53,894 nucleotides of DNA. Origin: a virus. Lineage: Duplodnaviria; Caudoviricetes. The notes beneath the pieces were generated by a model, which saw only the letters and a list, made by a program, of their open reading frames with translations, was not told the DNA's origin and ran no database searches. Positions 410 through 46,782 of the stretch are shown here, in pieces. The translations under genes and the position numbers were made by a program. Location: positions 1 through 53,894 of IMG/VR virus record IMGVR_UViG_3300050119_000052; one strand, written 5' to 3'. How positions within the stretch are numbered: the stretch's first letter is position 1; each line of letters begins with the position of its first letter.

Positions 410-3187
410 ATGGCCGGCACCTCCATCAAAATCTCAGGCAACGTCACCGAGGCCCTGGCCGCGCTCGACGCGCTCGGCATCAAGGCAGGGGAGACGGCAG
501 CCGAAACCGAGTCGAAGCTCGGCGGGGCAGCCGAAAAGACGGGCGGAATATTTCAGAAGCTCGGCAATACGCTCGGTAACTTCGGGCTGCCGTTCAGCGA
601 GTCCCTGACGAAGGTGGGCGACAAGCTCTCCGACACCGAAACCAAGGGCCAGAAGTTCGGTGCCGCGCTCTCCTCTGTCGGTAAGGCCGCTGTGCTGGGT
701 GCTGGCGCGGGGTTCGCTGTCGTCGCTGTTGAATCGGTGAAGCTGGGCGAGGCGTACCAGCAGACAACGGCCGGTATCCAGGCGTCGGCGGGGATCAGCG
801 CGTCCGCGGCCAAATCGATCGGCGACGCGTTCCTGACCACCGCGGGGCAGTCGACGTTCTCCGCGCAGGAGATGGCGTCCGCGTTCAGCCCCGTCGCTGG
901 CGTGGTGAAGAACCTCAACGGCGGGGTGTTGACCGCCGCCGCGTCGATGGACGTGATGAAAGCCGCCACGATGGGCGCGGAGGCGTCCGGTGGGAACCTG
1001 ACGACCACGACGTCGGACCTGACCGGTGTGATGCAGGCGTTCCAGATCAAGACGTCCGACTCGAGTACGACGATGAACGCACTGTTCAACGCCTCGAAGA
1101 CCACGGGTGTCAGCATCGATTCCCTGTCGTCGACGGTGGAGAAGCTGCACTCGAAGTTGGGTGTGGCCTCGCCGAGCCTCGCGGACACGTCGGCGCTGAT
1201 GGTCGACATGACCGAAGCCGGCGTCACCGGCCGGGCTGCAACGGCCGGGCTCAACACCGGAATGACGACGCTGCTCGGTGGATCCAAGGCCACGAATGCG
1301 GAACTGAGCACTCTCGGCGTGTCGGTGTACAACTCGTCGGGGCAGTTCGTGGGCATGCAGTCCGTCATCTCCCAACTGCAACCGAAACTCGCCGGCATGA
1401 CCGAGCAGCAGCAGGCCCTCGCTGAGAAGTCCTTGTTCGGTGCGGGTGCGGCCAGCGCGATGAACAAGGTCGTCTCCGGTGGTGTCGCCGCGTTCAATTC
1501 GGCGTCCGCTGCGGTGAATCAGAAGGGTGCGGCGGACAAAGCCGCGGAAGCGCAAGCGTCAACGCTCAAGGGCACGATGGAGAAGCTGAAGGCCACCGGG
1601 GAGGACCTGGGCACGAAGTTCGGCATCATCCTGATCCCGAAGATTCAGGAACTGGGTGCGGCGACAGCCGACGTCATCAACTGGTTCACGAAGCACAAGG
1701 CGATAACGGAAGCCCTCGCCGCTGTCATCGGCGGTGTCCTCGCTGTCGCTGTCGCCGCGTACGCAGTCCATCTGGTCGACGCTGCCGCCAAGTCCGTGAT
1801 CTCGTCGGCGAAAATCGTTGGTAGCTGGGTCGGTATCGGAACGTCCGCGGACGCCGCGGCTGCTGAGTCGACCGCCGCCGATGCGGAGGTCGCTGCTGGC
1901 AGCGAAGAGATGGCGACTTCCAGCATTGCCGCGTTCGGGGCCATGATCGGCGCCGCCGCTGGGTGGGTCGCGACTCAGGCCGCGCAGCTCGCCGAAGGCG
2001 TCGCCGGTATGGTCACCTGGGGGGCTGAGCACGCCGTCATGGCCGCCTCGTTCGTCGCGGAGAACCTCGCGATGATCGTGTCCGCTACTGCCGCGTTCGT
2101 CGCGGAGAACCTCGCGACTCTCGGCATCATCGCCGGCATCGCCCTCCTCATCGCCGGGATCGTGTTCCTCGCCACCCACTGGAAGCAGACGTGGAAGATC
2201 ATCCAGGACGTCGCTGGGGATGCGAAGAAATTCATAGTGAAGATATTCGACGATGTTGTCGACTTCGCCAAGAAGTGGGGGCCGCTGATCCTGACGGCGG
2301 TGGCACCGATGATCGGGATTCCGCTGCTGATCATGCAGCATTGGGGTGTCATCGAAACATTCTTCGAGAACCTCTGGTCCGACGTCACCGGCTACTTCAG
2401 CCGGGCTCTGACGTGGATATCGAACTTCTTCGAGTCGCTGCCCGGTAAGATCATGGGCTGGTTGTCGGGCGCCGGGACGTGGCTGCTGAGCCTCGGCGGC
2501 GACATCATCCATGGCCTGCTCGACGGCATCAACGCCTACTGGAAGTTGGTGCAGGACTTCTATGTGAAGATGCCGGAGGCGATCCTCGGGTACCTCGCGA
2601 ACGCCGGGACGTGGCTCACCCAAAAGGGTAAGGACGTCATCACCAGCTTCTGGAACGGCATCAAGGCGATCTGGCTGACCGTCACGAACTGGGCCGGCGG
2701 CATCCATCAGGACATCGTCGGGTACCTCAATGGCGCGGAGACGTGGCTCGTCCAGGCCGGTGAGGACATCATCAAGGGCCTCGTCAAGGGCATCACCAAC
2801 GTGGCGGGTTCGGTCGGTAACGCGATCAAGGGCGCGGTCGGGAACATCCCCGGTGCGAGTTCGGTGCTGGGTGCTATGGGTGTGCATCTTGGGGCACTGG
2901 GTGGCATTGTCACCAAGCCGACGTTCGCGTTGCTCGGTGAGGGTGGCGAGACGGAGTACGTGATCCCGCAGCATGTCCTCAGCGGCATAGGCGGCACGAA
3001 TGGTCTTCCGTCGCTGCCTGGTCTCAGCTCCGGTGGCATGGGCAACGCCCCGACACCGCCTGGAGCGTTCTCCAGTGGCGGGGGCGGCAGCAAGAGCGTC
3101 ACTTTGAACGTGAGTACCCCGCAGGCCAACCCCACTCAGCTCGCCACCGAGATGGCGTGGATTCTGCGCCCCTACCTCGGGACCTGA
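410..3187 (+). CDS. tape measure protein
   Basis: 925 aa, Ala/Gly-rich helical sequence with periodic Trp repeats and C-terminal GGIVTKPTFALLGEGG.EYVIP motif; expected position. Confidence 0.93.
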   Translation: MAGTSIKISGNVTEALAALDALGIKAGETAAETESKLGGAAEKTGGIFQKLGNTLGNFGLPFSESLTKVGDKLSDTETKGQKFGAALSSVGKAAVLGAGAGFAVVAVESVKLGEAYQQTTAGIQASAGISASAAKSIGDAFLTTAGQSTFSAQEMASAFSPVAGVVKNLNGGVLTAAASMDVMKAATMGAEASGGNLTTTTSDLTGVMQAFQIKTSDSSTTMNALFNASKTTGVSIDSLSSTVEKLHSKLGVASPSLADTSALMVDMTEAGVTGRAATAGLNTGMTTLLGGSKATNAELSTLGVSVYNSSGQFVGMQSVISQLQPKLAGMTEQQQALAEKSLFGAGAASAMNKVVSGGVAAFNSASAAVNQKGAADKAAEAQASTLKGTMEKLKATGEDLGTKFGIILIPKIQELGAATADVINWFTKHKAITEALAAVIGGVLAVAVAAYAVHLVDAAAKSVISSAKIVGSWVGIGTSADAAAAESTAADAEVAAGSEEMATSSIAAFGAMIGAAAGWVATQAAQLAEGVAGMVTWGAEHAVMAASFVAENLAMIVSATAAFVAENLATLGIIAGIALLIAGIVFLATHWKQTWKIIQDVAGDAKKFIVKIFDDVVDFAKKWGPLILTAVAPMIGIPLLIMQHWGVIETFFENLWSDVTGYFSRALTWISNFFESLPGKIMGWLSGAGTWLLSLGGDIIHGLLDGINAYWKLVQDFYVKMPEAILGYLANAGTWLTQKGKDVITSFWNGIKAIWLTVTNWAGGIHQDIVGYLNGAETWLVQAGEDIIKGLVKGITNVAGSVGNAIKGAVGNIPGASSVLGAMGVHLGALGGIVTKPTFALLGEGGETEYVIPQHVLSGIGGTNGLPSLPGLSSGGMGNAPTPPGAFSSGGGGSKSVTLNVSTPQANPTQLATEMAWILRPYLGT

Positions 3188-3188
3188 C

Positions 3189-4118
3189 GTGGCGTTCCCA
3201 ACGCCGGCCGTCGTCCCCCCGACTCTGTCCGCGTGGCAGTTCCAATACGCCGGGCTGACGTTCGGGCACGGGCAGCCGATCAAGATAGCGCAAGTCACCG
3301 GCATCGGTGACCTCGCCGTGATCCGCACAGGCGACCTGTCCAGGTCGAGGGACCATGGGGAACTCATCGGCCTCGACCTCTACGGTGGCCGTGACATCAG
3401 CATCGACCTCGAAGCGGAAGACGCCGGGTCCGGTGTGCAAGCGACCCTGCTCACACTGGCCGCCGCGACCGTCGTGGGTGCGACCACGGAACAGCCCCTG
3501 TGGTTCCAGGTCACCGGCTACCCGCTGCTGTGCGTCATGTGCCGGCCCCGTAAGCGGACCGCCCCGTGGGATGTGGGGTATCAGATCGGGAAGGTCGGCG
3601 TCGTGTCGACGCAGTTCCACGCCACCGACCCCCGCCTGTACGCGGCCACACTGACCGCGACTGTCGGCTTGGCGAGCCCGACCACAGGGGCGACGTTCCC
3701 GGTGACGTTCCCGATGACGTTCGGCACCGTCGCCCCGTCCGGGGTCACGGTCACCAACGCGGGCAACACCGAAACGCGCCCAGTGCTGGTCATCACCGGC
3801 CCGGTCACGAACCCGTCGGTCGCGAATTCGACCATCACGGGCGCTCCGACGTTGCAGTTCAGCAACCCGAATCAGGTCGGCTACACGGTCAATTCTGGGG
3901 ACCAGCTGGTCATCGACACTGATACGCATTCGATTCTGTATTACGTCGGGGGGGTGTCGTCGGGGTCCGCCCCGGCGTCCCGCGGGGGCTGGTTGGTGTC
4001 GGGTTCGACGTGGTGGGATCTGCCGCCGGGTGCGTCGCTGATTCAGTTCCTGTCGCAGGACTCCGCATCCGTCGCCGGAACGGTCCAAATAATTTGGGCT
4101 TCGGCGTATCAGCTATGA
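3189..4118 (+). CDS. distal tail (Dit)-like protein
   Basis: Follows TMP; F.ATDPRLY, NAGNTETRP and GPVTNP motifs typical of siphovirus tail components. Confidence 0.8.
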   Translation: MAFPTPAVVPPTLSAWQFQYAGLTFGHGQPIKIAQVTGIGDLAVIRTGDLSRSRDHGELIGLDLYGGRDISIDLEAEDAGSGVQATLLTLAAATVVGATTEQPLWFQVTGYPLLCVMCRPRKRTAPWDVGYQIGKVGVVSTQFHATDPRLYAATLTATVGLASPTTGATFPVTFPMTFGTVAPSGVTVTNAGNTETRPVLVITGPVTNPSVANSTITGAPTLQFSNPNQVGYTVNSGDQLVIDTDTHSILYYVGGVSSGSAPASRGGWLVSGSTWWDLPPGASLIQFLSQDSASVAGTVQIIWASAYQL

Positions 4119-5296
4119 GTATCCGCGTCAACGACGACGGCGACCCGAACACCATCACCTACCTCTTCACCGATCTCCATGGGAATCGCATCGAAGAACT
4201 ACCCATCACCGGGGTCACGTTCAGCCTCGCCTTGAACGCCTCCGGGCCGTTCGCCGGTTCGCTGAACATCGAAGACCCTCGAGTCCAAGCATTGGACTGG
4301 CAGGCGGCGACAGCACCGAACCTCGCGCAGGTGTGGGTCGACATCAACGGGACCCTCGTCTACGGGGGGATCGTCCAGGAACGCACCTACGACATGCCCT
4401 CCGGGACCGTCGCGATCAAGGGCACCGACCATTACGGGTACCTGATCCAGCGGTTGCAGGCGCAGGACTACTCCACGGTGTGGGCCACGACCCCGTTCGG
4501 GGCCGCGCAGATCGCGTACACGGTGATCACGGATGCGCTCGCTGTCGCGGACTCTCTGCCGCTGTCGGTGACGACCCCGGCGGCGACACCGTCCCAGTAC
4601 GGGATCACGTTGGCGGCGCCGATCAGTCAGCGCATGACGGTCGATTCGATCATCAATCAGGTGGCGGTGTTGGGGTGGCTGGTGGGTTTCGACTACGCCA
4701 TCGACGTCAAATACGTGGCCGGTGTCCCGACCGCGACGTTGACGCTCTCCTACCCGCGGCGGGGCCGGGTCGCTGGCACCACAGGTTTGGTCATCGACAC
4801 CCAGTCGGCGCTCGCGTTCACGTTCGACGAGTCCGGCACGGCTCAGGCCACCAGCGTCACCGAGGTCGCGACGGGGTCCGGTGGTGTCGCGACCACGGGG
4901 CAGTGGACGGCGGCCAACACGGTCGGGTATCCGCTGCTGGAGCGGGTCGGGTCGCACGCGTCGTTCTCGTCGGCGGCGATCCCACAAACCGTCCTCGACG
5001 CTTATGTGGCGAACGATTTGGCGTTGTCGGCGTATCCGGTGGTGACCCCGCAAGTGACGATGCCGATGTTCGCTGAGCCCGCGATCGGGGAGTGGATCGT
5101 CGGTGATGATGTGCGGATGCTGGTCGCGAAGACGTTGGGTGCGGGTCCGCCGCCGAATCCGCGGTTCCCGGCTGGGATGGACTTCTATTGGCGGATCACC
5201 CGCGCTGATGTGACCGTGCCAGCCGAAGGCATCCCCACGGTGGCGTTCACGTTCAACATGCCGCCGTCGTCGACGCCGCAGCGGCCACCGCAATAG
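4115..5296 (+). CDS. minor tail protein (baseplate hub/Tal-like)
   Basis: ATGA overlap with the Dit stop; GDDVR motif; synteny. Confidence 0.75.
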   Translation: MSIRVNDDGDPNTITYLFTDLHGNRIEELPITGVTFSLALNASGPFAGSLNIEDPRVQALDWQAATAPNLAQVWVDINGTLVYGGIVQERTYDMPSGTVAIKGTDHYGYLIQRLQAQDYSTVWATTPFGAAQIAYTVITDALAVADSLPLSVTTPAATPSQYGITLAAPISQRMTVDSIINQVAVLGWLVGFDYAIDVKYVAGVPTATLTLSYPRRGRVAGTTGLVIDTQSALAFTFDESGTAQATSVTEVATGSGGVATTGQWTAANTVGYPLLERVGSHASFSSAAIPQTVLDAYVANDLALSAYPVVTPQVTMPMFAEPAIGEWIVGDDVRMLVAKTLGAGPPPNPRFPAGMDFYWRITRADVTVPAEGIPTVAFTFNMPPSSTPQRPPQ

Positions 5297-5300
5297 GGAA

Positions 5301-5367
5301 CACTCAGCGGAGACGCCCGTCTGCATCCTGGGTGACGAAACAAATCTGGGGCATCTCCGCTGAGTGC
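5301..5367 (-). ncRNA. orphan dual-spacer guide RNA (tigRNA-like) #1; spacer A GATTTGTTT, spacer B GGATGCAGA
   Basis: Minus strand reads CACTCAGCGGAGATGCCC-CA-GATTTGTTT-CGTCACCCA-GGATGCAGA-C-GGGCGTCTCCGCTGAGTG. 18-bp stem with one G.U; loop repeat identical to the array units. Confidence 0.8.
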
Positions 5368-5374
5368 CGCCCAC

Positions 5375-5403
5375 AGTCTAACTGACTGAGCCGCGCAACC
5401 CAA
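5375..5403 (-). promoter_or_regulatory. promoter of orphan guide #1
   Basis: TAGACT -10 (5380-5375) 8 nt upstream of the stem; weak TTGGGT 17 bp further upstream. Confidence 0.65.
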
Positions 5404-20374: not shown

Positions 20375-21265
20375 TCAAGCGACGAGGTGCAGGTTACGAG
20401 GCACCGGCAGACTGCGAATCGCGGCAACCCGTTGATCGAGTCCGATCTCGGTGTACATGACAGTGCTCGCGATATTGGTGTGCCGCATCAGTCGTTGGAC
20501 CAGAGCGACATTACCGGTCGATTCGAGCAATTCCGTTCCAAAGGTATGACGAAGGGAATGGGGGGTCAGCGGTCGACCAAGGCCGGCGCGGCGCATCACC
20601 ATGCTGAGGATGTGACTGGCGCTGTTCGCGAGGATCGCTTCATCGGGATTCTGATAACTGGGGAACCAGAATCCTTCGGACGGCATCCACGCGGCGACCT
20701 CGGCGACGAGCGGATGGAGTGGCACCTCGTCGTAAGTGCCACCCTTTCCGACGACACCGATCATTTCGCCCTTGATGTCCTCGCCGCGGAACTTCGCGAT
20801 CTCCATGACCCGGAAACCCTGATAGGCGCCGAGCAGGATCATCGGCAGTGTGCGCGGGTGAACTCGGGCCGCTAGGAGCTCGTTCAGCTGACAGCGCGTG
20901 AGAGGTCGTGGTTTGCGGCGAATCGGTTTGCCTCGGTGGAGCTGGAGCATCGGATCGTCGGCGCGCAAGCCGGTCTGATTGAGCCAGTTGAACCAGCTCC
21001 GCAGGTTCGAGCGATAGTTCTGCTGGGTGCCGGGTGAAAGGGGCGCCAAGAAGCCTGTGACGTCCCGCCAGTCGGCCGTCAATGGGTCGATGCCCATGCG
21101 CCTCTCGAAGAGACCGACCGTCTCGATGCGTCCTCGGATGGTTTTGGGCGCGAGACCACCGGCCTGCATCCATGTTTCCCAAGCGTGAAGTTTGTCCCCG
21201 ATCACCGATGCATCATGGTCCGTCGACTCAGCGTAAACAAGCCTTAACTTCGAGTTGAACTTCAT
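20375..21265 (-). CDS. int: tyrosine integrase lacking an obvious N-terminal arm-binding domain
   Basis: GFRVMEI (R), GKGG (K), HSLRH, MRHTNIASTVMY (H, Y); C-terminus LHLVA; exact start uncertain. Confidence 0.92.
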   Translation of the reverse strand: MKFNSKLRLVYAESTDHDASVIGDKLHAWETWMQAGGLAPKTIRGRIETVGLFERRMGIDPLTADWRDVTGFLAPLSPGTQQNYRSNLRSWFNWLNQTGLRADDPMLQLHRGKPIRRKPRPLTRCQLNELLAARVHPRTLPMILLGAYQGFRVMEIAKFRGEDIKGEMIGVVGKGGTYDEVPLHPLVAEVAAWMPSEGFWFPSYQNPDEAILANSASHILSMVMRRAGLGRPLTPHSLRHTFGTELLESTGNVALVQRLMRHTNIASTVMYTEIGLDQRVAAIRSLPVPRNLHLVA

Positions 21266-21673
21266 CTAGGATGCCACCTCAATCGATGTCCGCTTTGTAC
21301 GCCATTCCCTCAGGTCGACCACAGAACCATTCGCTAGGTAATCGAAGGGTTGCTGGTTCGAGTCCAGCCGGGGGAGCACACCCGTCGAGTCGGGCGGCGG
21401 CGTGGTGCCATTGGGGCGTGAGGTCATGAAGCGCCAGATCGGAATCTGGAGCAGCCTGGCGAGACGGTCCAGGTCGTCTACGTCGAGCGCCTGGTCAGCC
21501 GTGCTGATGCGCCGACTCCAATAGGACTGCGAGTTGCCGAGCAGCTTCGGCAATCTGTTGATCGTGATCTTTGCTTTTGCGAGTTCCGAGCGCACTTCGG
21601 TGGCAACGCGCCCGCGGGCGCTCGACCGATCGGGCATCGGAACGACGTTGCTCATACCATCATTGTTCGTCAT
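21266..21673 (-). CDS. immunity repressor (HTH) containing attP in its 3' part
   Basis: HTH-like segment GNSQSYWSRRIS...LDVDDLDRLARLLQIP; divergent from cro; leaderless start at 21673. Confidence 0.85.
   Translation of the reverse strand: MTNNDGMSNVVPMPDRSSARGRVATEVRSELAKAKITINRLPKLLGNSQSYWSRRISTADQALDVDDLDRLARLLQIPIWRFMTSRPNGTTPPPDSTGVLPRLDSNQQPFDYLANGSVVDLREWRTKRTSIEVAS
21339..21376 (+). other. attP: attP core = 3' half of a tRNA (probably Asn-GTT)
   Basis: TAATCGAAGGGTT-GCTGG-TTCGAGT-CCAGC-CGGGGGA-G: anticodon 3' strand, T-arm, acceptor strand, G discriminator; no 5' half. Confidence 0.85.
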
Positions 21674-21679
21674 GCGGTC

Positions 21680-21708
21680 AATATAGCCCCTCACCGGATA
21701 CTTGCCAA
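21680..21708 (-). promoter_or_regulatory. repressor promoter (leaderless)
   Basis: TTGGCA-17-TATATT, 6 nt before ATG. Confidence 0.8.
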
Positions 21709-21715
21709 GGAAGGT

Positions 21716-21726
21716 GATTGACAATC
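21716..21726. promoter_or_regulatory. palindromic operator GATTGACAATC
   Basis: Lies between the divergent promoters; identical 11-mer at 38769-38779. Confidence 0.55.
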
Positions 21727-21758
21727 TCCTGTCCATGGGGATGTTAGTCGCTCAAGGG

Positions 21759-21787
21759 TTGACACAAGCCCATCATGCGGCTAACTT
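21759..21787 (+). promoter_or_regulatory. early lytic (cro) promoter, leaderless
   Basis: TTGACA-17-TAACTT, 6 nt before ATG 21794. Confidence 0.85.
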
Positions 21788-21793
21788 GACCAC

Positions 21794-22027
21794 ATGGCAA
21801 CCAACACCACCGCTGCGCGGGTAGCTGGGAAGGTCCGAGCCGCTCTCGCAGAAGCGCGGGTATCGCGCCAGTCCATCGCCGACGCGCTTGGAATCTCACT
21901 CTCGGCCATCACCCGGCGCCTCAACGCTGAGATCCCATTCGATGTGGCCGAGCTGGACAAGATCGCCGAGCGCCTCGACCTTCCGATGAATGCGCTGATC
22001 GTGACGCCAGATCAGGTGGCGTCGTGA
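21794..22027 (+). CDS. cro: Cro-like HTH protein
   Basis: SRQSIADALGISLSAITRRLNAEIPFDVAELDKIA, an XRE-type HTH. Confidence 0.85.
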   Translation: MATNTTAARVAGKVRAALAEARVSRQSIADALGISLSAITRRLNAEIPFDVAELDKIAERLDLPMNALIVTPDQVAS

Positions 22028-22141
22028 TCCGAGTCTGGCTGAGTTGGTGCTGGCTTTGGTCGGGTTCTGTGTGGCGTACGTGGTGACCCGGCGGGTCCTA
22101 GCCCGTCTACGAACGGATCAGCGATGACCGCAACTAAGACT

Positions 22142-22260
22142 CCCCACCACGCCAAGACGGCGACGTCACCCAGAGGTCCAGCGCGTGGTGGGGCCAAAAC
22201 TTCCAGCTTCCCCGGCAGCCAACCGGAACACGACACCCAACGGCGACTCGCTGCCGGGGA
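22142..22260 (+). ncRNA. TIGR-like stem-loop array, block 1 (units 1-2)
   Basis: Spacer pairs AGACGGCGA/GAGGTCCAG and ACCGGAACA/ACGGCGACT, each in stem-CCA-N9-CG(T/A)CACCCA-N9-CG-stem. Confidence 0.85.
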
Positions 22261-22282
22261 CCACTACTCAGCGGGGGAACAC

Positions 22283-22756
22283 ATGACCGGATTCAAAGAA
22301 ATCGTAGGCGACGTGCTGGAACACAGCGCCCGCAACGACCCCAACGAACTCGCAGAAGAGATCATGGGTCGGCTCACCCTGCCGCAGATCCGTGAAGGGC
22401 TAGCGCTCGCCCTCCCGGAGTACGTCCGACACGCGTTCCATCGCATCACCTACACCCCCGACCCTGACCCGTCTCGGCGAGTCAGGCAGGCGGCGGGGGC
22501 GTGGGATCGGCACAAGCAGCTCCTCGCTGTCCGCAAGCTGGGGTTGGAGGACTGGAAGCCGTTCGGGGAGTTCACCGCTGCGGATTGCACTGCGGCGGCG
22601 GAGTTGCGGCGGTTGAAGGCGTCGGAGTCGACGGCGCGAGCGGTCAAGTTCGACGCGACGGCTGAGGCTGTTGTGGCTGCGGGTGTCGCGTGTGTCGCGG
22701 ACCTGCCTGCTGATGTGCTTCTCGGTTTGTGGGGTAGCCATGACCTCGGCGAATAA
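22283..22756 (+). CDS. hypothetical 157-aa protein embedded in the array (candidate Tas partner)
   Basis: RBS GGGGGAACAC-ATG nearly identical to that of the tas gene; flanked by array blocks on both sides. Confidence 0.75.
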   Translation: MTGFKEIVGDVLEHSARNDPNELAEEIMGRLTLPQIREGLALALPEYVRHAFHRITYTPDPDPSRRVRQAAGAWDRHKQLLAVRKLGLEDWKPFGEFTAADCTAAAELRRLKASESTARAVKFDATAEAVVAAGVACVADLPADVLLGLWGSHDLGE

Positions 22757-22760
22757 GACC

Positions 22761-23050
22761 TCCCCGGCAGCCAGACCGCCTACGTCACCCACAAGGGCAC
22801 CGCTGCCGGGGACCCAAACCACCGCCACGCCACGCTGGTCGCGTCACCCACATCTGGTTCGCGTGGCGGTCCTATTCGACCCCGGCAGCCAAAGCCGCGC
22901 CGTCACCCATGTCGTGGGCGCTGCCGGGGTCCATATTCCCCCACCACGCCAGAGGTCGACCGTCACCCAACGCCCACACGCGTGGTGGGTTCACACGTCC
23001 CCGGCAGCCAGCCCGCAGCCGTCACCCAGACGAGGCACGCTGCCGGGGAC
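22761..23050 (+). ncRNA. TIGR-like stem-loop array, block 2 (units 3-7)
   Basis: About 59-nt period. Spacers GACCGCCTA/CAAGGGCAC, CGCTGGTCG/CATCTGGTT, AAGCCGCGC/TGTCGTGGG, GAGGTCGAC/ACGCCCACA, GCCCGCAGC/GACGAGGCA; invariant CGTCACCCA loop repeat. Confidence 0.9.
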
Positions 23051-23070
23051 CTCACTCATCGGGGGACCAC

Positions 23071-23805
23071 ATGACTGACCTCTACGACCCACTCCTCGGC
23101 AACCTCGCCGCCACAGTCGACGACCTCGAGATGGTTCGGAAAGCCGCCGAGAACCGTCTACGGCAGTTGACTAGGACCGGCGTCGACAAAGACGGCACCT
23201 CACGCGGCTTCGGACTACCCGAAGACCACCTATCCGTCCAAGCGGCCACAGTCATCGTCGACGGACTCAAGCGAGTCGAACACCAAGCGATCCTGCTGTT
23301 ACAGCGCCAACTCCGCACCCACCCACTACACCCGTGGATCAAGGCCCAAAACGGGCTGGGTGAGAAAACCGTCGCCCGACTGCTCGCCGCGATCCAGGAC
23401 CCGTACTGGAACGACCGACACGACCGCCCCCGCACCGTTGGTGAGCTGTTCAAGTTCTGCGGTGTCGCCGGCCCCGGTCAGCGTAAGCGGAAGGGTGAAC
23501 GGGTCACGTGGTCGCCTGAGGCGCGGATGCGATTGCACGTGATCATCGAGCCGATCGTGAAGAATCGGCGGTCGCCCTATCGGGCGGTTTACGACCAGGC
23601 GCGGGTCAAGTACGCGGAGAAGACGCACACGGAGGTGTGTGTGCGGTGCGGCCCGGCGGGTAAGCCTGCGCTGGTTGGGTCGCCGTGGCCGCCGGCTCAT
23701 CAGCATGCGGCCGCGATGCGCCTGGTGAAGCGTGCAGTTCTGCGCGGGCTGTGGGAAGAATCCCGCCGGTTGCATGGTGCCGACGAACTGAAGGTCGCAG
23801 CATGA
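23071..23805 (+). CDS. Nop-domain/IS110 C-terminal-like RNA-binding protein without a nuclease domain (TasA-like)
   Basis: 244 aa; coiled coil (RKAAENRLRQL), then WIKAQNGLGEKTVARLLAAI...TVGELFKFCGVA...RKGERVTWSPEARMRL...YRAVYD...HAAAMRLVKRAVLRGLW. No RuvC/DEDD N-terminus. Flanked by dual-spacer arrays. Confidence 0.82.
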   Translation: MTDLYDPLLGNLAATVDDLEMVRKAAENRLRQLTRTGVDKDGTSRGFGLPEDHLSVQAATVIVDGLKRVEHQAILLLQRQLRTHPLHPWIKAQNGLGEKTVARLLAAIQDPYWNDRHDRPRTVGELFKFCGVAGPGQRKRKGERVTWSPEARMRLHVIIEPIVKNRRSPYRAVYDQARVKYAEKTHTEVCVRCGPAGKPALVGSPWPPAHQHAAAMRLVKRAVLRGLWEESRRLHGADELKVAA

Positions 23806-23816
23806 CCACTCAAACT

Positions 23817-23984
23817 CCCGCCACGCCAGCCATCTGCCGACACCCAGCTCTCTCGCGCGTGGCGGGGCTCAACTACCCCGGCAGCCATGGGCCTGGCGTC
23901 ACCCAAGCGATGACCGCTGCCGGGGTCCTAAACGAATCGTCGCGCCAAGTCCCAGCCGTCACCCATCAGAGGGCCGCCCGTCGG
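23817..23984 (+). ncRNA. TIGR-like stem-loop array, block 3 (units 8-10; last stem degenerate)
   Basis: Spacers GCCATCTGC/GCTCTCTCG, TGGGCCTGG/AGCGATGAC, AGTCCCAGC/TCAGAGGGC. Confidence 0.85.
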
Positions 23985-24007
23985 AGGCTTCCCGTCGGTG
24001 GTGGGTC

Positions 24008-24631
24008 ATGACCAGCACCGAAGAGGCCAGCGGCGATCTGCGACCGTGCCCGCGCTGCAATGGACGGGGGACCGTTCACAGCAAAGAGGTTGTCCACGGC
24101 ACGCTCTACGCGGCCACTCGTCTCCGCTGCCGATGCGATCTCTGCTCTGCTGCTCGCCGGGATTACGACTCAGCTCGATTGGGTCACCGGATCCGGTCTC
24201 GCGCAGAGCAGAAGCAGGCGCGACTCGAGTCGGCCGGAGAGTTCATCACCCTTCACCAGTCAGGCCTGACGATCGCGGAGATAGCGGCCAAGGTGAACCG
24301 GTCGATCAACTTCGTTGCTGGCGCGTTGCATGAAGCGGGATATCAGCCGCGGCGGGGTATTACCGCGACTTTCCTCGAGCACGGAACCCGCGCGTACAAG
24401 GTCCGCACAGGCTGCCGCTGCGATCTGTGCCGCGCTGCCGTCACCCGCGAGAAGAAGGAAGCGCGCCAGCGGCGCCACGAAGCCATGCTCGCTGGCCAAG
24501 TGAACCCGCCGCACGGATCGACCAGCACCTACAGCAACTACACCTGCCGCTGCGATCTGTGCCGCGCTGCGTGGTCGGTCCGTATGCGCGAACAACGCCA
24601 GCGCCGGAAGCCACCGAGAGGCCGGTCATGA
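24008..24631 (+). CDS. zinc-finger (HG..Y..CRC..C x3) + HTH DNA-binding protein
   Basis: Three HG-x-CRCDLC repeats flanking GLTIAEIAAKVNRS. Confidence 0.7.
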   Translation: MTSTEEASGDLRPCPRCNGRGTVHSKEVVHGTLYAATRLRCRCDLCSAARRDYDSARLGHRIRSRAEQKQARLESAGEFITLHQSGLTIAEIAAKVNRSINFVAGALHEAGYQPRRGITATFLEHGTRAYKVRTGCRCDLCRAAVTREKKEARQRRHEAMLAGQVNPPHGSTSTYSNYTCRCDLCRAAWSVRMREQRQRRKPPRGRS

Positions 24632-24936
24632 CAACTACGAGCATCGAACTCATCGCCTGCCCGCAGCCCAAGTAAGTAATCGGCCGCCGTGGGGGCGATC
24701 CCTCGGCGGCCTGCCAGTCCCAAGCCCTCTGAAAGGAATGGACCAGCAATGACCAGCATAGAACAGCCACAGCAGGAAACCCCCCATAGCAGCGAGGGGG
24801 CGTCGCTCGGTGTCGTGGCCCGGGCGACGACCCCTCGTCCAACCCCTGGCAGCCGGTTGCCGTCGTTTCTTGATGAGGGTTGGACGAAGCCCCCGGGCCG
24901 GCGAGGCCCTGGTTGGTTGCGGCGCAGGTGGGCCCG

Positions 24937-40958: not shown

Positions 40959-41363
40959 ATGGGTCGACAGTGCCGTAACCCGAAGTGCAACCGTCCGTTG
41001 ACTGGTCGTAAGACGATGTGGTGTGACAGTGGGTGTCGGAACGCGGCGAGTCGCGCGGCGAGTCGTGGTGCGACGGTGATCAGCCTCCCGAAGGTGGAGG
41101 ACCAGGGCCCTCTGAGCACGTATTCGGCGTTCAAGGCGGCTCTCGACGCTGCGGGGCGCCTGGACACGCCTTTAGGGCAGCTCGCGCTGTCTCATGCGGC
41201 GCTGTTGAACGCCTCGGTTGCTGTGATGGGCCGTGCGGCGTTGGCCAAGGAGCTTCGTGAGACGTTTGTTGAGGCGATGAAGGATGCCGACCACAACACT
41301 TCCGCTCTCGACGAGATCAATGAGTCCGCTGCTGCTGCGCTCGAGCTCATTCGTGGAGCCTGA
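40959..41363 (+). CDS. terS: terminase small subunit (N-terminal Zn finger)
   Basis: Position; AALAKELR and LDEI motifs. Confidence 0.7.
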   Translation: MGRQCRNPKCNRPLTGRKTMWCDSGCRNAASRAASRGATVISLPKVEDQGPLSTYSAFKAALDAAGRLDTPLGQLALSHAALLNASVAVMGRAALAKELRETFVEAMKDADHNTSALDEINESAAAALELIRGA

Positions 41364-42909
41364 TCTTGTCGCGCCGAGGTATCTGACTGTCCCGGAGTAT
41401 GAGGGCACGTTGGGTCCGCATGTGGCGGCGGTGTCGACGTTGGCGGGGTTCGCGCCTGATCCGGAGCAGCGGATTCTGTTGGATGGTGCGTTCGGGTTGG
41501 ATAGGTCGGGGAAGCCGGCTGCGTTCGCGGTGGTGGTGATCGCGCCGCGGCAGAACTTGAAGACGGGGTTCCTTAAGCAGTATTCGCTGGGTCAATTGTT
41601 CGTCGTGTCGCAGCATTTGTCTCGGCGGGACGCTCAGGACTGGCTGATGGTGTGGTCCTCACATGAGTTCACGACGGCCGAGGCTGCGCTGCGTGACTTG
41701 GAGTCGCTGATCGAGGGGTCCCCGGATCTGGCGCGGATGGTGAAGCGGACGAGCCGCGGGTTCCTCGCGAAACATGGCGCTGTTCCGGTCATCGAGTTGA
41801 AGAACGGCGCCCGGTGTGTGTTCAAGACCCGCACCAAGGGCGGCGGGCGGGGGTTGTCGGGTAACAAGACGATCCTCGACGAGGCGTTCGCGGTGCAGGC
41901 GGGGCAGGCGGGGGCGTTGCTGCCGATCATGTTGGCTCGACCGGGCGCGCAGGTGTTGTGGGCGTCGTCGGCGTGTCGACCCGAGTCGGCTGTGTTGTGG
42001 GATCAGGTGGTCCGTGGTCGCGCCGGGGCCCGGCGGATGTTGTATGCGGAGTGGTGCGCGCCGCCCCCAGCGGAGGCGTGCCGGTTGGGTGAGCGGTGCA
42101 CGCACGGCCGGGAGGTTCGCGGCTGCGGCTGCGACGACCTGGACCTGATCCGGGGTGTTCATTCGGCGATCACCCGCGGCCGTATCGACATTCAGACCGT
42201 TGTCGATCTGCGGTCGCTGCCGCCGGAGGAGTATTGCCGGGAGATCATGGGCTGGCACAACGACGTCGTCGGTTCGACGATGATCATGTCGCTGGCGAAG
42301 TGGTCGCTGCTGGCCGATGAGAAGTCTGGCCTCACATCGGTGTCCGCGTTCGGTGTCGCAGTGTCACATGACCGCAAGTGGGCGAGTATCGGCGCGGCGG
42401 GGCCGGCTAAGTCGGCGATCGGCCGCACCCACCTGGAACTGGTCGACCGGAGACCCGGCGTCGACTGGGTGGTGGAGCGGTGCAAGGAGTTGGCGAAGAC
42501 GCACAGGCGGGTGCCGTTCGTCGTCGACGACCACGGCCCGGCGGCGTCGCTGATCAAAGCGTTGAAGCAGGCGCGGGTGCCGCTGATGACAACCAGTACA
42601 GGTGAGTACGCGGACGCGACGGAACAGTTCCTCGACGGTGTGGTGGGTGAGTTGTTCACCCACGGCCCGGACGAGGTGATTCAGGACGCGGTCGACGCGG
42701 TGCAGCCGCGGCCGATGGGTGACCGGTTCGTTCTCGGCCGCAAAGCGTCGGGGGACATCACAGCGCTGGAAGGTCCCATGCTCGCGGCGTGGGGCGCATC
42801 GAACTACAAGCGGCCCACCTATGTGGTCGACCTCAACCAGTTTGGAGCCGTAGATGACGTGGTTGAGGCGGGTGACGAGGCAGCGGGTCCTGATCCACTC
42901 GGCCGCTGA
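41320..42909 (+). CDS. terL: terminase large subunit
   Basis: PRQNLKT Walker-A-like, GRGLSG, ILDEA Walker B, DITALE; start could be GTG 41353. Confidence 0.92.
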   Translation: MSPLLLRSSSFVEPDLVAPRYLTVPEYEGTLGPHVAAVSTLAGFAPDPEQRILLDGAFGLDRSGKPAAFAVVVIAPRQNLKTGFLKQYSLGQLFVVSQHLSRRDAQDWLMVWSSHEFTTAEAALRDLESLIEGSPDLARMVKRTSRGFLAKHGAVPVIELKNGARCVFKTRTKGGGRGLSGNKTILDEAFAVQAGQAGALLPIMLARPGAQVLWASSACRPESAVLWDQVVRGRAGARRMLYAEWCAPPPAEACRLGERCTHGREVRGCGCDDLDLIRGVHSAITRGRIDIQTVVDLRSLPPEEYCREIMGWHNDVVGSTMIMSLAKWSLLADEKSGLTSVSAFGVAVSHDRKWASIGAAGPAKSAIGRTHLELVDRRPGVDWVVERCKELAKTHRRVPFVVDDHGPAASLIKALKQARVPLMTTSTGEYADATEQFLDGVVGELFTHGPDEVIQDAVDAVQPRPMGDRFVLGRKASGDITALEGPMLAAWGASNYKRPTYVVDLNQFGAVDDVVEAGDEAAGPDPLGR

Positions 42910-43063
42910 CCAGACGTTCGAGGGCTTGTTGTGGGAGCAGGACAAGGAAGGCGTGACCCTTCGGGACGCGGCCCTGATCAGTGAGAAAGGCGCACAGACG
43001 CGGCTGGCGGGGGAGGTGTGGATTCCCCGCGGCAACGTGCTGTTCGCGCAGCACGACGGATAA
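42854..43063 (+). CDS. small Sm-like hypothetical protein
   Basis: TFEGLL...GEVWIPRGNVLFAQ. Confidence 0.6.
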   Translation: MTWLRRVTRQRVLIHSAADQTFEGLLWEQDKEGVTLRDAALISEKGAQTRLAGEVWIPRGNVLFAQHDG

Positions 43064-43072
43064 GAGGCGGCC

Positions 43073-44314
43073 ATGCAGGTTCTGACCAGGGATCGGCGCT
43101 TCGAAGAGGTCCGTTCGGGCACCTGGAATCCGGCTCAGCAGTGGGGTTCGACTGTGCCGCCCACCAACGGGCAGGCGGGTGGCGTCGCGGCCTCGGGGAC
43201 GACGGTGTCGGAGAAGCACGCGATGCAGCTCGCGGCGGCGTGGGGGTCGGTGTCGATCATCTGCGACGCGTTGGCGACGCTACAGATCCGGCAGTACAAG
43301 CTGGTGTCGAGTAGCGACGTCCCGGTGCAGATGGACCCGTCGCAGGTCATCGCGGAGCCGTGGCCCGAGATCAATCAGCTGGATTTCATCACCCAGGGCA
43401 CCTATTCGCTTTTGCAGCGGGGGAATCTGTTCGGCAACATCACCGCACGGGACCCGAACACCCTTTACCCGACGCAGGTGCAGCTCGTCCACCCTGATCA
43501 TGCGCGGGTTCGCCGCGCCGGCCAGGGGCAGATCGAGGTGTCCTACTTCAACAAGGTCGCGAACCCCGACAATGTGACCCGGGCGATGGCGCTGTCCGTC
43601 CCTGAGGGACTGGTCGGGTTGAACCCGATCGAGTACATGCGTAACTCGTTCGGGCTGGGTTTGGCGCAGGACGGCATGAGTGGTTCGTTCTTCGCGAACT
43701 CGGCTAGGCCCGATGGTGTCCTCCAAGTCGAGGGTGATCTGGACCCGGACGAAACGAAGGCGATGCTCGCCGCGTGGAACTCCTCCCATCAGGGCATCGA
43801 GGCCGCGTACGGCGTCGGTGTGTTGACGAGCGGCGCCAAGTGGCAACCGATCACGATGAACCTCGCGGACGCCCAGTTCTTGCAGCAGATGCAGTATTCG
43901 GCGTCGGTGATTTCCGGGATGATTTACCGGGTTCCGCCGCACATGCTCGGCATCGTCGACAAGTCCACGTCGTGGGGTGCCGGCATCGAGCAGCAGGAAC
44001 AAGGGTTCATCACCAACACCATCGGGATCTGGCTGGCCCGCTGGGAAGACTTGATGACGTCGTGGCTGCCACCAAGGCAGTTCGTGATGTTCGACCTGAG
44101 CAAGCGGCTCCGTGGTGACACGTTGCAGCGCTGGTCGATGTATCAGATGGCGCGGGTTATCGGTGCGATGAACAACCTTCAGATCATCAAGGCTGAGGGT
44201 TTGGAGATTCCGACGGACCCGGCGGTGTTGGCGACGTTGGCGGATTATGCGGCGCCGTTGAATTCGGCGCCGATGAAGCCGACGAATTCCGCAGTCGACG
44301 GAGACAAAGCGTAA
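43073..44314 (+). CDS. HK97-family portal protein
   Basis: GLNPI, FFANSARP, DAQFL, YRVPPHMLG, IEQQ. Confidence 0.93.
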   Translation: MQVLTRDRRFEEVRSGTWNPAQQWGSTVPPTNGQAGGVAASGTTVSEKHAMQLAAAWGSVSIICDALATLQIRQYKLVSSSDVPVQMDPSQVIAEPWPEINQLDFITQGTYSLLQRGNLFGNITARDPNTLYPTQVQLVHPDHARVRRAGQGQIEVSYFNKVANPDNVTRAMALSVPEGLVGLNPIEYMRNSFGLGLAQDGMSGSFFANSARPDGVLQVEGDLDPDETKAMLAAWNSSHQGIEAAYGVGVLTSGAKWQPITMNLADAQFLQQMQYSASVISGMIYRVPPHMLGIVDKSTSWGAGIEQQEQGFITNTIGIWLARWEDLMTSWLPPRQFVMFDLSKRLRGDTLQRWSMYQMARVIGAMNNLQIIKAEGLEIPTDPAVLATLADYAAPLNSAPMKPTNSAVDGDKA

Positions 44315-44321
44315 TAGCAAA

Positions 44322-44389
44322 GCACCCAGCGGAGAAGCCCGAAAGGGAAATGGGTGACGTTTTGGAGATGGGGCTTCCCCGCTGAGTGC
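44322..44389 (-). ncRNA. orphan dual-spacer guide RNA #2; spacer A TCTCCAAAA, spacer B TTTCCCTTT
   Basis: 18-bp stem that is complete only on the minus strand (two G.U); CCA-N9-CGTCACCCA-N9-CG; TAGACT at 44402-44397 and CTGTCA 18 bp upstream. Confidence 0.82.
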
Positions 44390-44419
44390 AGCCACAAGTC
44401 TACCTGAAAGGAGGTCGCC

Positions 44420-45394
44420 GTGACAGACGACGCAAGCGACGCAGCCGAGGAGAAGGCTCTGCCGAAGTCGGTCGAGTGGCGCAAGACGCGCGCCATGGAA
44501 CTGCGAGGCGCCGAGCGTCGCACCCATCTGGAGCATGTCGAGTTCCGCGACAACCCAGACGGGTCCCTGCATCTGTCCGGTTACGCATCGGTTACGAATA
44601 CTCCATACGATATGGGATGGTATTCCGAGTCGATCTCCCGCGGCGCGTTCGCGAAAACCCTCGCCGAAAACCCCGACGTGCAACTCCTCGTGAACCACGC
44701 CGGGCTGCCGTTGGCGCGCACCAAGTCGGGCACTTTGCAACTGTCTGAGGACAACACGGGGCTGCGGGTAGACGCTGATCTCGACCCGGAAGACCCCGAC
44801 GTGCAGTCGCTGTCGCGGAAGATGAAGCGCGGCGATATCGACCAGATGAGCTTCGCGTTCCGTGCGACCAGGCAGTCCTGGGACGAGGACTACACCGACC
44901 GGCAGATCACCGAATGCGATATTCACCGCGGCGATGTCAGCGTTGTGAATCAGGGTGCGAACCCGAGCACGTCCGTGTCGGTGCGCACTGAAGACGCACT
45001 GGTGGCGTTGCGGCACATCGGGCACCTCGGATTCCTCGAGGCGATGCTCGACATTCGGCGCTTCTCCGGCACTCCGCTGGAGCAGCGGGCCGGGATGACG
45101 CTGTCCGCGGCCACCACCGAGGTACTGACCCAGGTGCTGGCCCTCATTGCGACGGCGGACGAAGCAGTCGACGAGGCTCAGCCGCTCCTGGCCGATCTGA
45201 TGGGCGTCCCCAACCCCGACGAGCCCGAAGAGGACGCGAGCGATGCGACCGTCGATGACACCAGCGACGAAGGTGACGACGGCGACCAGGGCGGCGACGA
45301 GGGCGAACAGGACTCGGCCCGCAGCGTGTCGCTGGCGTTGGAAGCCCGCCGCCGCCTAGAAGCGCTCCGCTACCCGAAGAAGGACGCAGCATGA
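44420..45394 (+). CDS. HK97-type prohead protease
   Basis: GYASV, LLVNH, MSFAF, DVSVV...AN; acidic C-terminal extension. Confidence 0.9.
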   Translation: MTDDASDAAEEKALPKSVEWRKTRAMELRGAERRTHLEHVEFRDNPDGSLHLSGYASVTNTPYDMGWYSESISRGAFAKTLAENPDVQLLVNHAGLPLARTKSGTLQLSEDNTGLRVDADLDPEDPDVQSLSRKMKRGDIDQMSFAFRATRQSWDEDYTDRQITECDIHRGDVSVVNQGANPSTSVSVRTEDALVALRHIGHLGFLEAMLDIRRFSGTPLEQRAGMTLSAATTEVLTQVLALIATADEAVDEAQPLLADLMGVPNPDEPEEDASDATVDDTSDEGDDGDQGGDEGEQDSARSVSLALEARRRLEALRYPKKDAA

Positions 45395-46539: not shown

Positions 46540-46548
46540 CGCAATGGA

Positions 46549-46616
46549 GCACCCAGCGGAGAAGCCCGCACACCGACTGGGTGCCGCTCATGACCTGGGG
46601 TCTCTCCGCTGAGTGC
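46549..46616 (-). ncRNA. orphan dual-spacer guide RNA #3; spacer A GGTCATGAG, spacer B GTCGGTGTG
   Basis: Same 18-bp stem family; loop repeat CGGCACCCA; TAGACT at 46630-46625. Confidence 0.78.
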
Positions 46617-46782
46617 CGTCCCCGAGTCTAACCACTAGTCGTTTCACCCCACGCCGGGCCTGTGCCCGGTGCGCGCCGCTGCACCCACGGGTCGCAGCAC
46701 CCGCACCGGACGTGGCGCACCACCTGGGAAATCCAGCAAACCCCCAGAGCGCACGAATGCGCCCGACGCTAGGAGAACAGCA

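Follow-up and report, generated by a model that had tools for sequence, protein, structure and literature searches.

A putative stem-loop TIGR-TasA locus beside the immunity genes of a temperate actinobacterial phage

The viral record IMGVR_UViG_3300050119_000052 (Duplodnaviria; Caudoviricetes) is one contig of 53,894 bases with 63.9% G+C. The window analysed here is this entire genome record, and PHROG matches across it give the gene set of a tailed temperate phage. On the plus strand, positions 22142 to 23976 hold an array of ten units whose build is that seen in TIGR (tandem interspaced guide RNA) systems. The array is divided into blocks by two genes, one for a partner protein and the other, tasA, for a protein that resembles the RNA-binding part of Tas nucleases. 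Three solo units of the same build lie far from the array on the minus strand. The coordinates are collected in Table 1.

Table 1. Features of the array locus, the solo units and the surrounding phage genome (nt, nucleotides; aa, amino acids; z, folding score against shuffled sequences; RBS, ribosome-binding site; HTH, helix-turn-helix; tigRNA, TIGR guide RNA)
Feature	Position	Strand	Evidence or remark
tigRNA unit 1, 52 nt, 10-bp stem CCCCACCACG	22142..22193	+	fold z -3.49
tigRNA unit 2, 52 nt, stem TCCCCGGCAG, loop CGACACCCA	22209..22260	+	fold z -3.97
tigRNA unit 3	22761..22812	+	fold z -4.15
tigRNA unit 4	22821..22870	+	fold z -2.92
tigRNA unit 5	22878..22931	+	fold z -4.77
tigRNA unit 6	22940..22989	+	fold z -2.64
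tigRNA unit 7	22997..23050	+	fold z -6.13
tigRNA unit 8	23817..23866	+	fold z -3.35
tigRNA unit 9	23875..23926	+	fold z -3.07
Unit 10, core without closing stem	23945..23976	+	fold z +0.89
Partner gene, 157 aa	22283..22756	+	PHROG 4604 (function unassigned), 9.2e-9; RBS GGGGGA 4 nt before ATG
tasA, 244-aa nuclease-free Nop-domain protein	23071..23805	+	RBS GGGGGA 4 nt before ATG
Solo unit m1, core 5318-5349, 19-20 bp stem, spacers GATTTGTTT / GGATGCAGA	5300..5380	-	TAGACT 5380-5375, then 7 nt; fold z -7.23
Solo unit m2, core 44340-44371, long stem, spacers TCTCCAAAA / TTTCCCTTT	44322..44402	-	TAGACT 44402-44397; fold z -5.89
Solo unit m3, core 46567-46598, long stem, loop CGGCACCCA	46549..46630	-	TAGACT 46630-46625; fold z -3.98
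Putative P_R-like promoter, early rightward operon	21760..21788	+	TTGACA-17 nt-TAACTT, read from sequence
cro-like HTH gene, 77 aa, first in array-bearing operon	21794-22027	+	Pfam BetR 2.4e-9, HTH_3 2.5e-6
cI-like repressor	21266-21736	-	PHROG transcriptional repressor 9.3e-16; faces cro-like gene
Integrase	20375-21265	-	PHROG integrase 5e-38
Tape measure and tail genes	410-5296		PHROG
Terminase, portal, protease and capsid-like genes	41284-48441		PHROG

The array and the solo units

The motif CCA-N9-CG-NCAC-CCA-N9-CG has 13 exact matches in the 53.9 kb, compared with a mean of 0.01 in 100 dinucleotide-preserving shuffles. Ten of these cores lie on the plus strand, starting at 22152, 22219, 22771, 22830, 22889, 22949, 23008, 23826, 23885 and 23945. 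The original prediction had described ten units of the form CCA-N9-CG(T/A)CACCCA-N9-CG, in blocks of 2+5+3 around the open reading frames (ORFs) 22283-22756 and 23071-23805, and all of them are found in these places. Its claim that the 20 array spacers are all 9 nt long and all different also stands when the spacer list is checked. The predicted stem length of 10-12 bp holds for units 1-9 when the pair between the C of box C and the G of box D is counted (the stems are perfect and 9-11 bp long otherwise), but it fails for unit 10, which is stemless.

When the array and solo units are taken together, CCA-N9-CG is read twice in each of the 13, the 26 spacers are all distinct and the CG-N4-CCA loop is always 9 nt. 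Of the 13 units, 12 have stems, which span 9-11 bp in the array units and 19-20 bp in m1-m3. Units 1-9 measure 50-54 nt each and fold into the closing stem with z scores of -2.6 to -6.1 against shuffles. The array stems belong to two alternating families, …CCCCGGCAG and …CC(A/G)CCACG. The linkers, with 47% G+C against 64% in the genome, measure 7-8 nt, except for the 15 nt that separate unit 1 from unit 2. The central segment CG(T/A)CACCCA is better parsed as a box D (CG), a 4-nt linker and a box C (CCA), and each unit is therefore a pseudo-symmetric pair of CCA-N9-CG frames. The sequence allows the C of box C to pair with the G of box D at the edge and loop elements of all units, and the edge C:G pair is present in their predicted folds. 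This grammar equals that of the published stem-loop TIGR unit, as had been proposed. Rfam gives 0 matches in the whole window. CRISPR-Cas loci have cas genes and identical repeats, 25-36 nt long, with single spacers; no such repeats are seen here, and PADLOC finds no match for the three genes scanned, the partner gene included.

The three minus-strand cores were absent from the original prediction and sit 17-23 kb from the array. Unit m1 occupies the gap between two plus-strand tail genes, after the minor tail gene, m2 lies between the portal and protease genes and m3 between two capsid-like genes. All three share a 19-20 bp stem, GCACTCAGCGG(A/G)GA…. The m1-m3 alignment is conserved over stem and boxes, over a short tail (GTGCT…ATTGCG) and over a hexamer TAGACT located 7-9 nt before the stem, and the differences are confined to the spacers and to positions farther upstream. 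The -10 motif of actinobacterial promoters is TANNNT, and TAGACT fits it as a -10-like box at each solo unit. We infer from this arrangement that the solo units are stand-alone guide genes. The spacers of m1 and m2 are A+T-rich (33-56% G+C) compared with 67% G+C in the array spacers, which hints at a different class of target site, for example intergenic DNA. No dispersed solo units are present in five related phage records, and a scan of IMG/VR for the solo-unit stem pattern gives 0 matches.

The leaders of the partner gene (22262-22282, …ACTCAGCGGGGGAACAC-ATG) and of tasA (23050-23070, …ACTCATCGGGGGACCAC-ATG) are alike, and both also resemble the 5' stem arm of the solo units, CACTCAGCGGAGA (5354-5366, 44376-44388 and 46603-46615). 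The solo units may derive from sequence at an array end. The two adjacent genes with m3 between them (45391-46539 and 46669-48441) both match major-head PHROG 2263 (9.7e-30 and 1.2e-28).

Ordinary structural hairpins near a degenerate IS110-type gene, such as terminators, attenuators, mRNA-stabilising or repetitive extragenic palindrome (REP)-like elements, would be an alternative to guides. The solo units do sit exactly in gaps after late genes, and their 19-20 bp hairpin would also form in the plus-strand mRNA. A terminator, however, has no need of a fixed 32-nt loop in which two CCA...CG frames never vary while the 9-nt inserts come in 26 versions. Variation falls exactly in the spacer columns, no T run follows the array stems, and the number of matches far exceeds chance. 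The same stemmed grammar also recurs beside or inside tas, on the tas strand, in 63 of 80 IMG/VR relatives, in which just one unit is on the opposite strand. We regard the structural explanation as highly improbable.

TasA and the partner gene

A phmmer search of the PDB sequences with TasA matches exactly two entries, TasR (9MTY, E 8.5e-9) and TasH (E 1.7e-8). In both cases the aligned region starts past the nuclease domain, at residue 150 of TasR and residue 118 of TasH. Pfam assigns 0 families at E<=1 to the 244-aa ORF, and PHROG 4285 ('transposase') covers its full length (9e-88). The AlphaFold (AF2) model, built with an alignment of 54 homologs, has a predicted local distance difference test score (pLDDT) of 95 and a predicted template modelling score (pTM) of 0.87. 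It shows a coiled-coil hairpin of two helices (7-34 and 54-82), followed by a helical RNA-binding C-terminal domain. The two helices align with the Tas coiled coil, the dimer-mediating element in Tas proteins. Foldseek ranks 1-10 are all TasR or TasH chains, with E about 1e-7 to 3e-6 and template modelling (TM) scores of 0.65-0.72 over 235-244 columns. The chain ends 10 residues past the last long helix (208-234), while TasH runs about 69 residues beyond the aligned end; TasA therefore has no Y/H processing loop. The match to Tas proteins without their nuclease domain identifies the protein as TasA, and the nuclease-less, TasA-like Nop-domain protein of the original prediction is thus borne out by phmmer, the AF2 model, Foldseek and the lack of a nuclease domain. 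By analogy, such a protein would bind DNA without cutting it and act by silencing. Residues 186-195 form a nearly invariant H-x3-C-x2-C-G-P stretch in a beta-hairpin insertion (54-sequence alignment), which is missing from TasH in the phmmer alignment.

The PHROG label, together with the transposase annotation of some GenBank homologs, raises the question of an IS110-like mobile element, with TasA as RNA-guided recombinase or transposase and the hairpins as bridge RNAs. The IS621 and ISCro4 recombinases are indeed the next Foldseek matches (E 2e-3 to 6e-3). The similarity to IS621 covers the RNA-binding part only and gives a TM score of 0.52-0.54, lower than for the Tas proteins. IS110 recombinases combine an N-terminal DEDD/RuvC-like domain with a C-terminal catalytic serine domain; TasA, with 244 aa and no Pfam match, consists of the coiled coil and RNA-binding part only. 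The bridge RNA systems share with our locus a homologous RNA-binding domain and guide loops that read both DNA strands. They differ in having a catalytic domain, a donor-binding loop and mobility, and they use one two-loop bridge RNA in place of the at least ten independent units with unrelated spacers found here. The place of the module in the early operon is also fixed in many phages. A mobile element of this kind is exceedingly improbable.

The partner gene sits between sub-arrays 1 and 2. With tblastn, a homolog is found just upstream of tas in 28 of 98 related loci. A profile of 25 sequences, to which 24 of the 98 loci had contributed, finds one directly upstream of tas and on its strand in 96 of the 98, and one of the two misses has just 34 nt of upstream DNA. 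Partner and tas are separated by a gap, mostly of 200-800 nt, that contains the units. The profile matches 2,539 representative clusters at E<=1e-3 (1,872 at E<=1e-10), and the pair is present in cultured Mycobacterium phages as gp71/gp70 of Pinto and gp51/gp50 of Rich. The model of the partner is helical with a disordered middle (pLDDT 84.5, pTM 0.50). Foldseek gives no match at E<=1e-3, the best VIA match reaches Z 4.9 on a helical hairpin, Pfam matches 0 of 25 members, ESM Atlas returns nothing usable and a word-based homolog search returns the query itself only. The conserved position argues that the partner is not a passenger, and most likely it works with TasA or its guides.

In the text of Faure 2025 (PMC12045711), TasA is described as lacking 'clear associations with other proteins' except for a ParB-like gene in dual-repeat loci. 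The main text and legends of Xu 2026 (bioRxiv 10.64898/2026.09.09.750476), supplements aside, do not mention an accessory gene, and a full-text literature search, again outside supplements, did not find the partner gene. One possibility is that TasA acts otherwise than by plain steric repression, with the partner as the true effector or as an indispensable third element, for example a factor for tigRNA maturation or loading or a protein that TasA brings to the target. Partner, array and TasA would then make up a three-part system, which would refine the TIGR-TasA interpretation and not exclude it. Its same-strand position directly upstream of tas, in most cases with units in between, the size of the family and the pairs in Pinto and Rich point in this direction, and Xu 2026 left auxiliary factors in stem-loop tigRNA processing open. 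No family, fold or motif of the partner suggests an activity, however, and in Xu 2026 other TasA proteins were able to repress in E. coli when given only the array. Synteny by itself is also no proof of shared function. We hold this role for the partner to be conceivable but, on the evidence at hand, rather unlikely.

Two longer in-frame ORFs run through units of the array. The first (22124-22756, 210 aa) starts at an upstream ATG and passes through units 1-2 into the partner gene, which is the form given in the protein database, and the second (22909-23805, 298 aa) leads from its upstream ATG across units 5-7 to tasA. For both proteins the short form is favoured by the homolog alignments and by the GGGGGA ribosome sites. 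Many homologs in the databases have 300-420 aa, probably from the same read-through of units. A similar case is seen in phage Rich (L100), where units at 2136-2977 and 3723-3754 lie inside annotated gp51 and gp50; the annotated ORFs take in several units as N-terminal extensions, and the GenBank annotation hides the array. The gp71-gp70 gap of phage Pinto (Fromanvirus) has hairpins with longer loops, which the strict pattern misses.

Homologs of tas comprise 630 proteins at E<=1e-3. A tblastn search finds tas in 91 records of cultured phages (83 from Mycobacterium), in which it is annotated as hypothetical, transposase or DNA-binding. It is also carried by 18 prokaryote genomes, including Streptomyces, Kitasatospora, Mycobacterium, Tsukamurella, Glutamicibacter and Nocardia. 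One IMG/VR relative has an OrfB_IS605 gene of TnpB or Cas12f-like type (L046:1757-2983) some 1 kb upstream of its partner-tasA module, an arrangement that places two unrelated RNA-guided proteins side by side.

Spacers and target sites

Units with a stem of at least 7 bp are present in 78 of 99 sources, and the 312 distinct stemmed units from these form the spacer set. Spacer pairs are common only to near-identical loci, and none is common with the window. In 149 of the 312 units (47.8% against 25.5% expected, z 9.0), base 9 of spacer A is the Watson-Crick complement of base 9 of spacer B. Among the 231 pairs of variable positions, the next best after A9:B9 reaches a z of 2.5 only. For background, an IMG/VR scan for the exact loop CGTCACCCA gave 120 loci with 126 matches, one of them stemmed, and A9:B9 is complementary in 22 of the 125 stemless chance matches to the same core. 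The effect is spread across most loci and across upstream, intragenic and downstream units; in the window, 6 of the 13 units have it.

The spacers also show a 3-base periodicity. Spacer A and the reverse complement of spacer B (rcB) share the 3-base phase, one position off the expectation for a contiguous 9+9 site. This shared phase has a z of 4.6 in a GC-phase test and of 3.2-3.3 in a codon-likelihood test, in which real coding 18-mers return zero shift, and it persists without position 9 or without positions 7-9 (z 3.0-3.2). On the same strand, A and B have no shared phase (z about 0.1-1.1). Neither the A9:B9 covariation nor the phase shift was found in the published text and legends on TIGR-Tas, supplements aside.

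The coding-like periodicity would also suit guides that target RNA in the manner of box C/D small nucleolar ribonucleoproteins, binding or modifying host or phage transcripts, and the architecture is homologous to that of box C/D guides (Faure 2025). Sharing of the phase by A and rcB, but not by A and B on one strand, fits the two strands of duplex DNA and not one RNA, and the published text on TasA complexes describes binding to double-stranded DNA. Box C/D particles carry RUGAUGA and CUGA boxes, kink-turns, L7Ae and fibrillarin; here the boxes are CCA and CG, the module has no methyltransferase or L7Ae-like gene, the partner shows no such fold, and the Nop5/fibrillarin structure 1NT2 is a weak fold match only (E 1.4). 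Targeting of RNA is accordingly very unlikely.

A central base pair read by both spacers, which makes a site of 17 bp, would explain the covariation and the phase together, and half-sites 2 bp apart would explain the phase only. The phase signal is not concentrated in the A9:B9-complementary units (z 1.4 vs 2.6). The 17-bp site is put forward as a hypothesis because the phase is not tied to the complementary units and no real target has been found.

The original prediction assumed a strict 18-bp target made of spacer A and rcB. This rule is not confirmed for the clade, and no target for it is seen in the phage or in 0.9 Mb of related loci. In the phage itself, contiguous A+rcB or rcB+A sites with up to 3 mismatches number 5, all with 3 mismatches, against 4.7 in mispaired controls. 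In the 0.9 Mb, no offset stood out at <=1 mismatch. For the junction rule, events in which a guide overlaps the reconstructed target of another guide, including the 9-mer shared by units 1 and 2, are uninformative, at 9-17 per model against 9.5-12.4 in controls. Two single sites were rejected as within the chance level, one for unit 10 at 24716-24732 (16 of 17-18) and one for m3 at 23994-24013, at the start of the gene after the array (outer 15 nt exact). We estimate about 1-2 chance matches per 18-mer query in a database-wide scan, a problem that Xu 2026 also raises. With no targets in the phage itself, the targets most likely lie in the host or in competing mobile elements.

Setting of the locus and its interpretation

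In this phage the array module is the first element after cro. The TAACTT hexamer ends 5 nt 5' of the cro-like ATG, and the transcript from the cro side is probably leaderless. As read from sequence, TTGACA-17 nt-TAACTT is a plausible early rightward promoter; the consensus scan does not list it because the -10 matches TATAAT at 3 of 6 positions only. Between cro and the array no terminator-like site stands above chance (3 found vs 2.1 expected), and expression of the array from the cro promoter is plausible. Compared with Gordonia and Mycobacterium phages, the terminase reaches no more than 39% identity, which indicates some actinobacterium as host. Megablast of the locus against phage records gives no match.

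The upstream neighbourhood was surveyed in 44 non-redundant loci, with Pfam run on 148 upstream ORFs. Five loci (L003, L010, L014, L021 and L043) have a divergent HTH repressor-type gene within 2.5 kb, and one (L007) has an IrrE-type peptidase. Most others have early replication, recombination or regulator genes, for example SSB, Prim-Pol, YqaJ, Lsr2, WhiB and HNH. Given these early-type neighbours, the module is an early-region element. Directly 3' of the array, a gene for 207 aa (24008-24631, plus strand) carries three copies of C-R-C-D-L-C-(R/S)-A-A and an N-terminal CxxC; its PHROG matches, to HNH or HTH proteins, are weak. Since it stands alongside tas in only 1 of 98 related loci, this gene does not belong to the module.

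We conclude that the locus is very probably a stem-loop TIGR-TasA system of a temperate actinobacterial phage, for which we propose the following mechanism. During early lytic growth, a single precursor that spans the array, the partner gene and tasA would be made from the cro-side promoter. Cleavage of its AU-richer linkers of 7-8 nt, probably by a host RNase, would then free the hairpin tigRNAs. A TasA dimer would hold each tigRNA through its two box C/D pairs, and at a site of roughly 17-20 bp spacers A and B would pair with opposite DNA strands. Once bound, the complex would block transcription or another DNA transaction without cutting. The solo guides would probably be separate small transcripts of the opposite strand.

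Several observations weigh against this interpretation. The sole signal in RNA libraries consists of two identical 151-nt contigs from one metatranscriptome run, at low depth, and they fall within the partner ORF (22329-22618); they cover no unit and are no proof of transcription. Unit 10 has an intact core with 1 closing pair only and a positive fold z (Table 1), and is a degenerate terminal unit. CTT stands directly before the stem in unit 2 only, that is, CUU is at the stem base of 1 of 9 units, and processing may therefore differ from that in Xu 2026. The solo units have the wrong orientation for the plus-strand late operon, and their putative promoters consist of the conserved hexamer only. 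Among self-targets at offsets 7-12, 29 sites pass the threshold of 15 matches in 18, with 15-16 matches each, and several of these are the units themselves; the mispaired controls give 24.4. In the 0.9 Mb of related loci, sites with the outer 7+7 exact number 98 against 96.5 in controls.

The locus is a real element of an already known kind, since stem-loop TIGR-TasA and TasA as an RNA-guided repressor have been published, and the interpretation given in the original prediction is supported. Stem-loop arrays, including the PlTasA locus with 13 units in three sub-arrays, were described with units that are expressed and processed singly (Faure 2025). Xu 2026 catalogued 2,559 such arrays, noted units inside the tas coding sequence, and showed for MbTasA that it binds its DNA target and that its repression of a reporter is guide-dependent and reversible. 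According to the same text, the Y/H processing loop is absent from all stem-loop clades and CUU at the stem base is frequent but not defining. Structures of PlTasA by cryo-electron microscopy have been reported (Guan 2026, bioRxiv 10.64898/2026.08.11.744272). As described in these texts, PlTasA (from a Peromyscus leucopus gut contig), BlTasA and MbTasA share with our locus a nuclease-free Nop-domain protein without Y/H loop, hairpin units in which boxes C and D frame each of two spacers of about 9 nt and the loop measures 9 nt, and sub-arrays up- and downstream of tas that are split by coding DNA in a phage or provirus setting. The present locus differs from them in the rarity of CUU at its stem bases, in the three solo units with promoter-like boxes on the other strand and in the partner interleaved with the array.

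The dual-repeat TasR and TasH (TaTasR 9MTY, SpTasH 9W04) are the best sequence and fold matches of TasA. They have the CCA box C and two 9-nt spacers on opposite DNA strands in common with our locus. Unlike TasA, they carry RuvC or HNH nuclease domains and cut DNA, and their units are 36 nt long with conserved edge repeats where ours have variable stems. The C-terminal Y/H loop, by which TasH processes its array, has no counterpart in TasA. Box D is CG here, compared with UG in TaTasR and ParTasR and with CUU/UG boxes in PateTasR, as far as the published texts give them. The TasA-TasParB operons, in the text of Faure 2025, also have a conserved companion gene before TasA with units between the two. 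TasParB is ParB-like and goes with dual-repeat arrays. For the partner of our locus, Pfam shows a ParB signature in 0 of 25 members, and no ParB fold is among the structural matches.

A further possibility is that the actinophage clade forms a distinct three-part TIGR variant, with an obligatory partner of unknown fold whose gene lies within the array, scattered promoter-driven stand-alone guides that would not depend on array processing and a target rule that departs from contiguous 9+9. For this last part, the A9:B9 complementarity and the shifted phase together fit a 17-bp site with its central base pair read by both spacers, or half-sites 2 bp apart, mostly in protein-coding DNA. We consider this variant, taken with all its parts, doubtful.

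As a stem-loop TIGR-TasA system, the locus adds one more well-resolved example, in a complete temperate phage genome and in an early-operon place beside the immunity switch. What it specifically contributes is a conserved partner gene, predicted promoter-bearing solo guides and the spacer covariation. The partner is near-universal in a clade with 83 cultured Mycobacterium phages and could be tested in phages of Mycobacterium smegmatis. The solo guides bear on processing versus independent transcription, a question left open in the Discussion of Xu 2026. The spacer covariation constrains the natural target rule or the origin of spacer pairs, both of which are open questions in the field.

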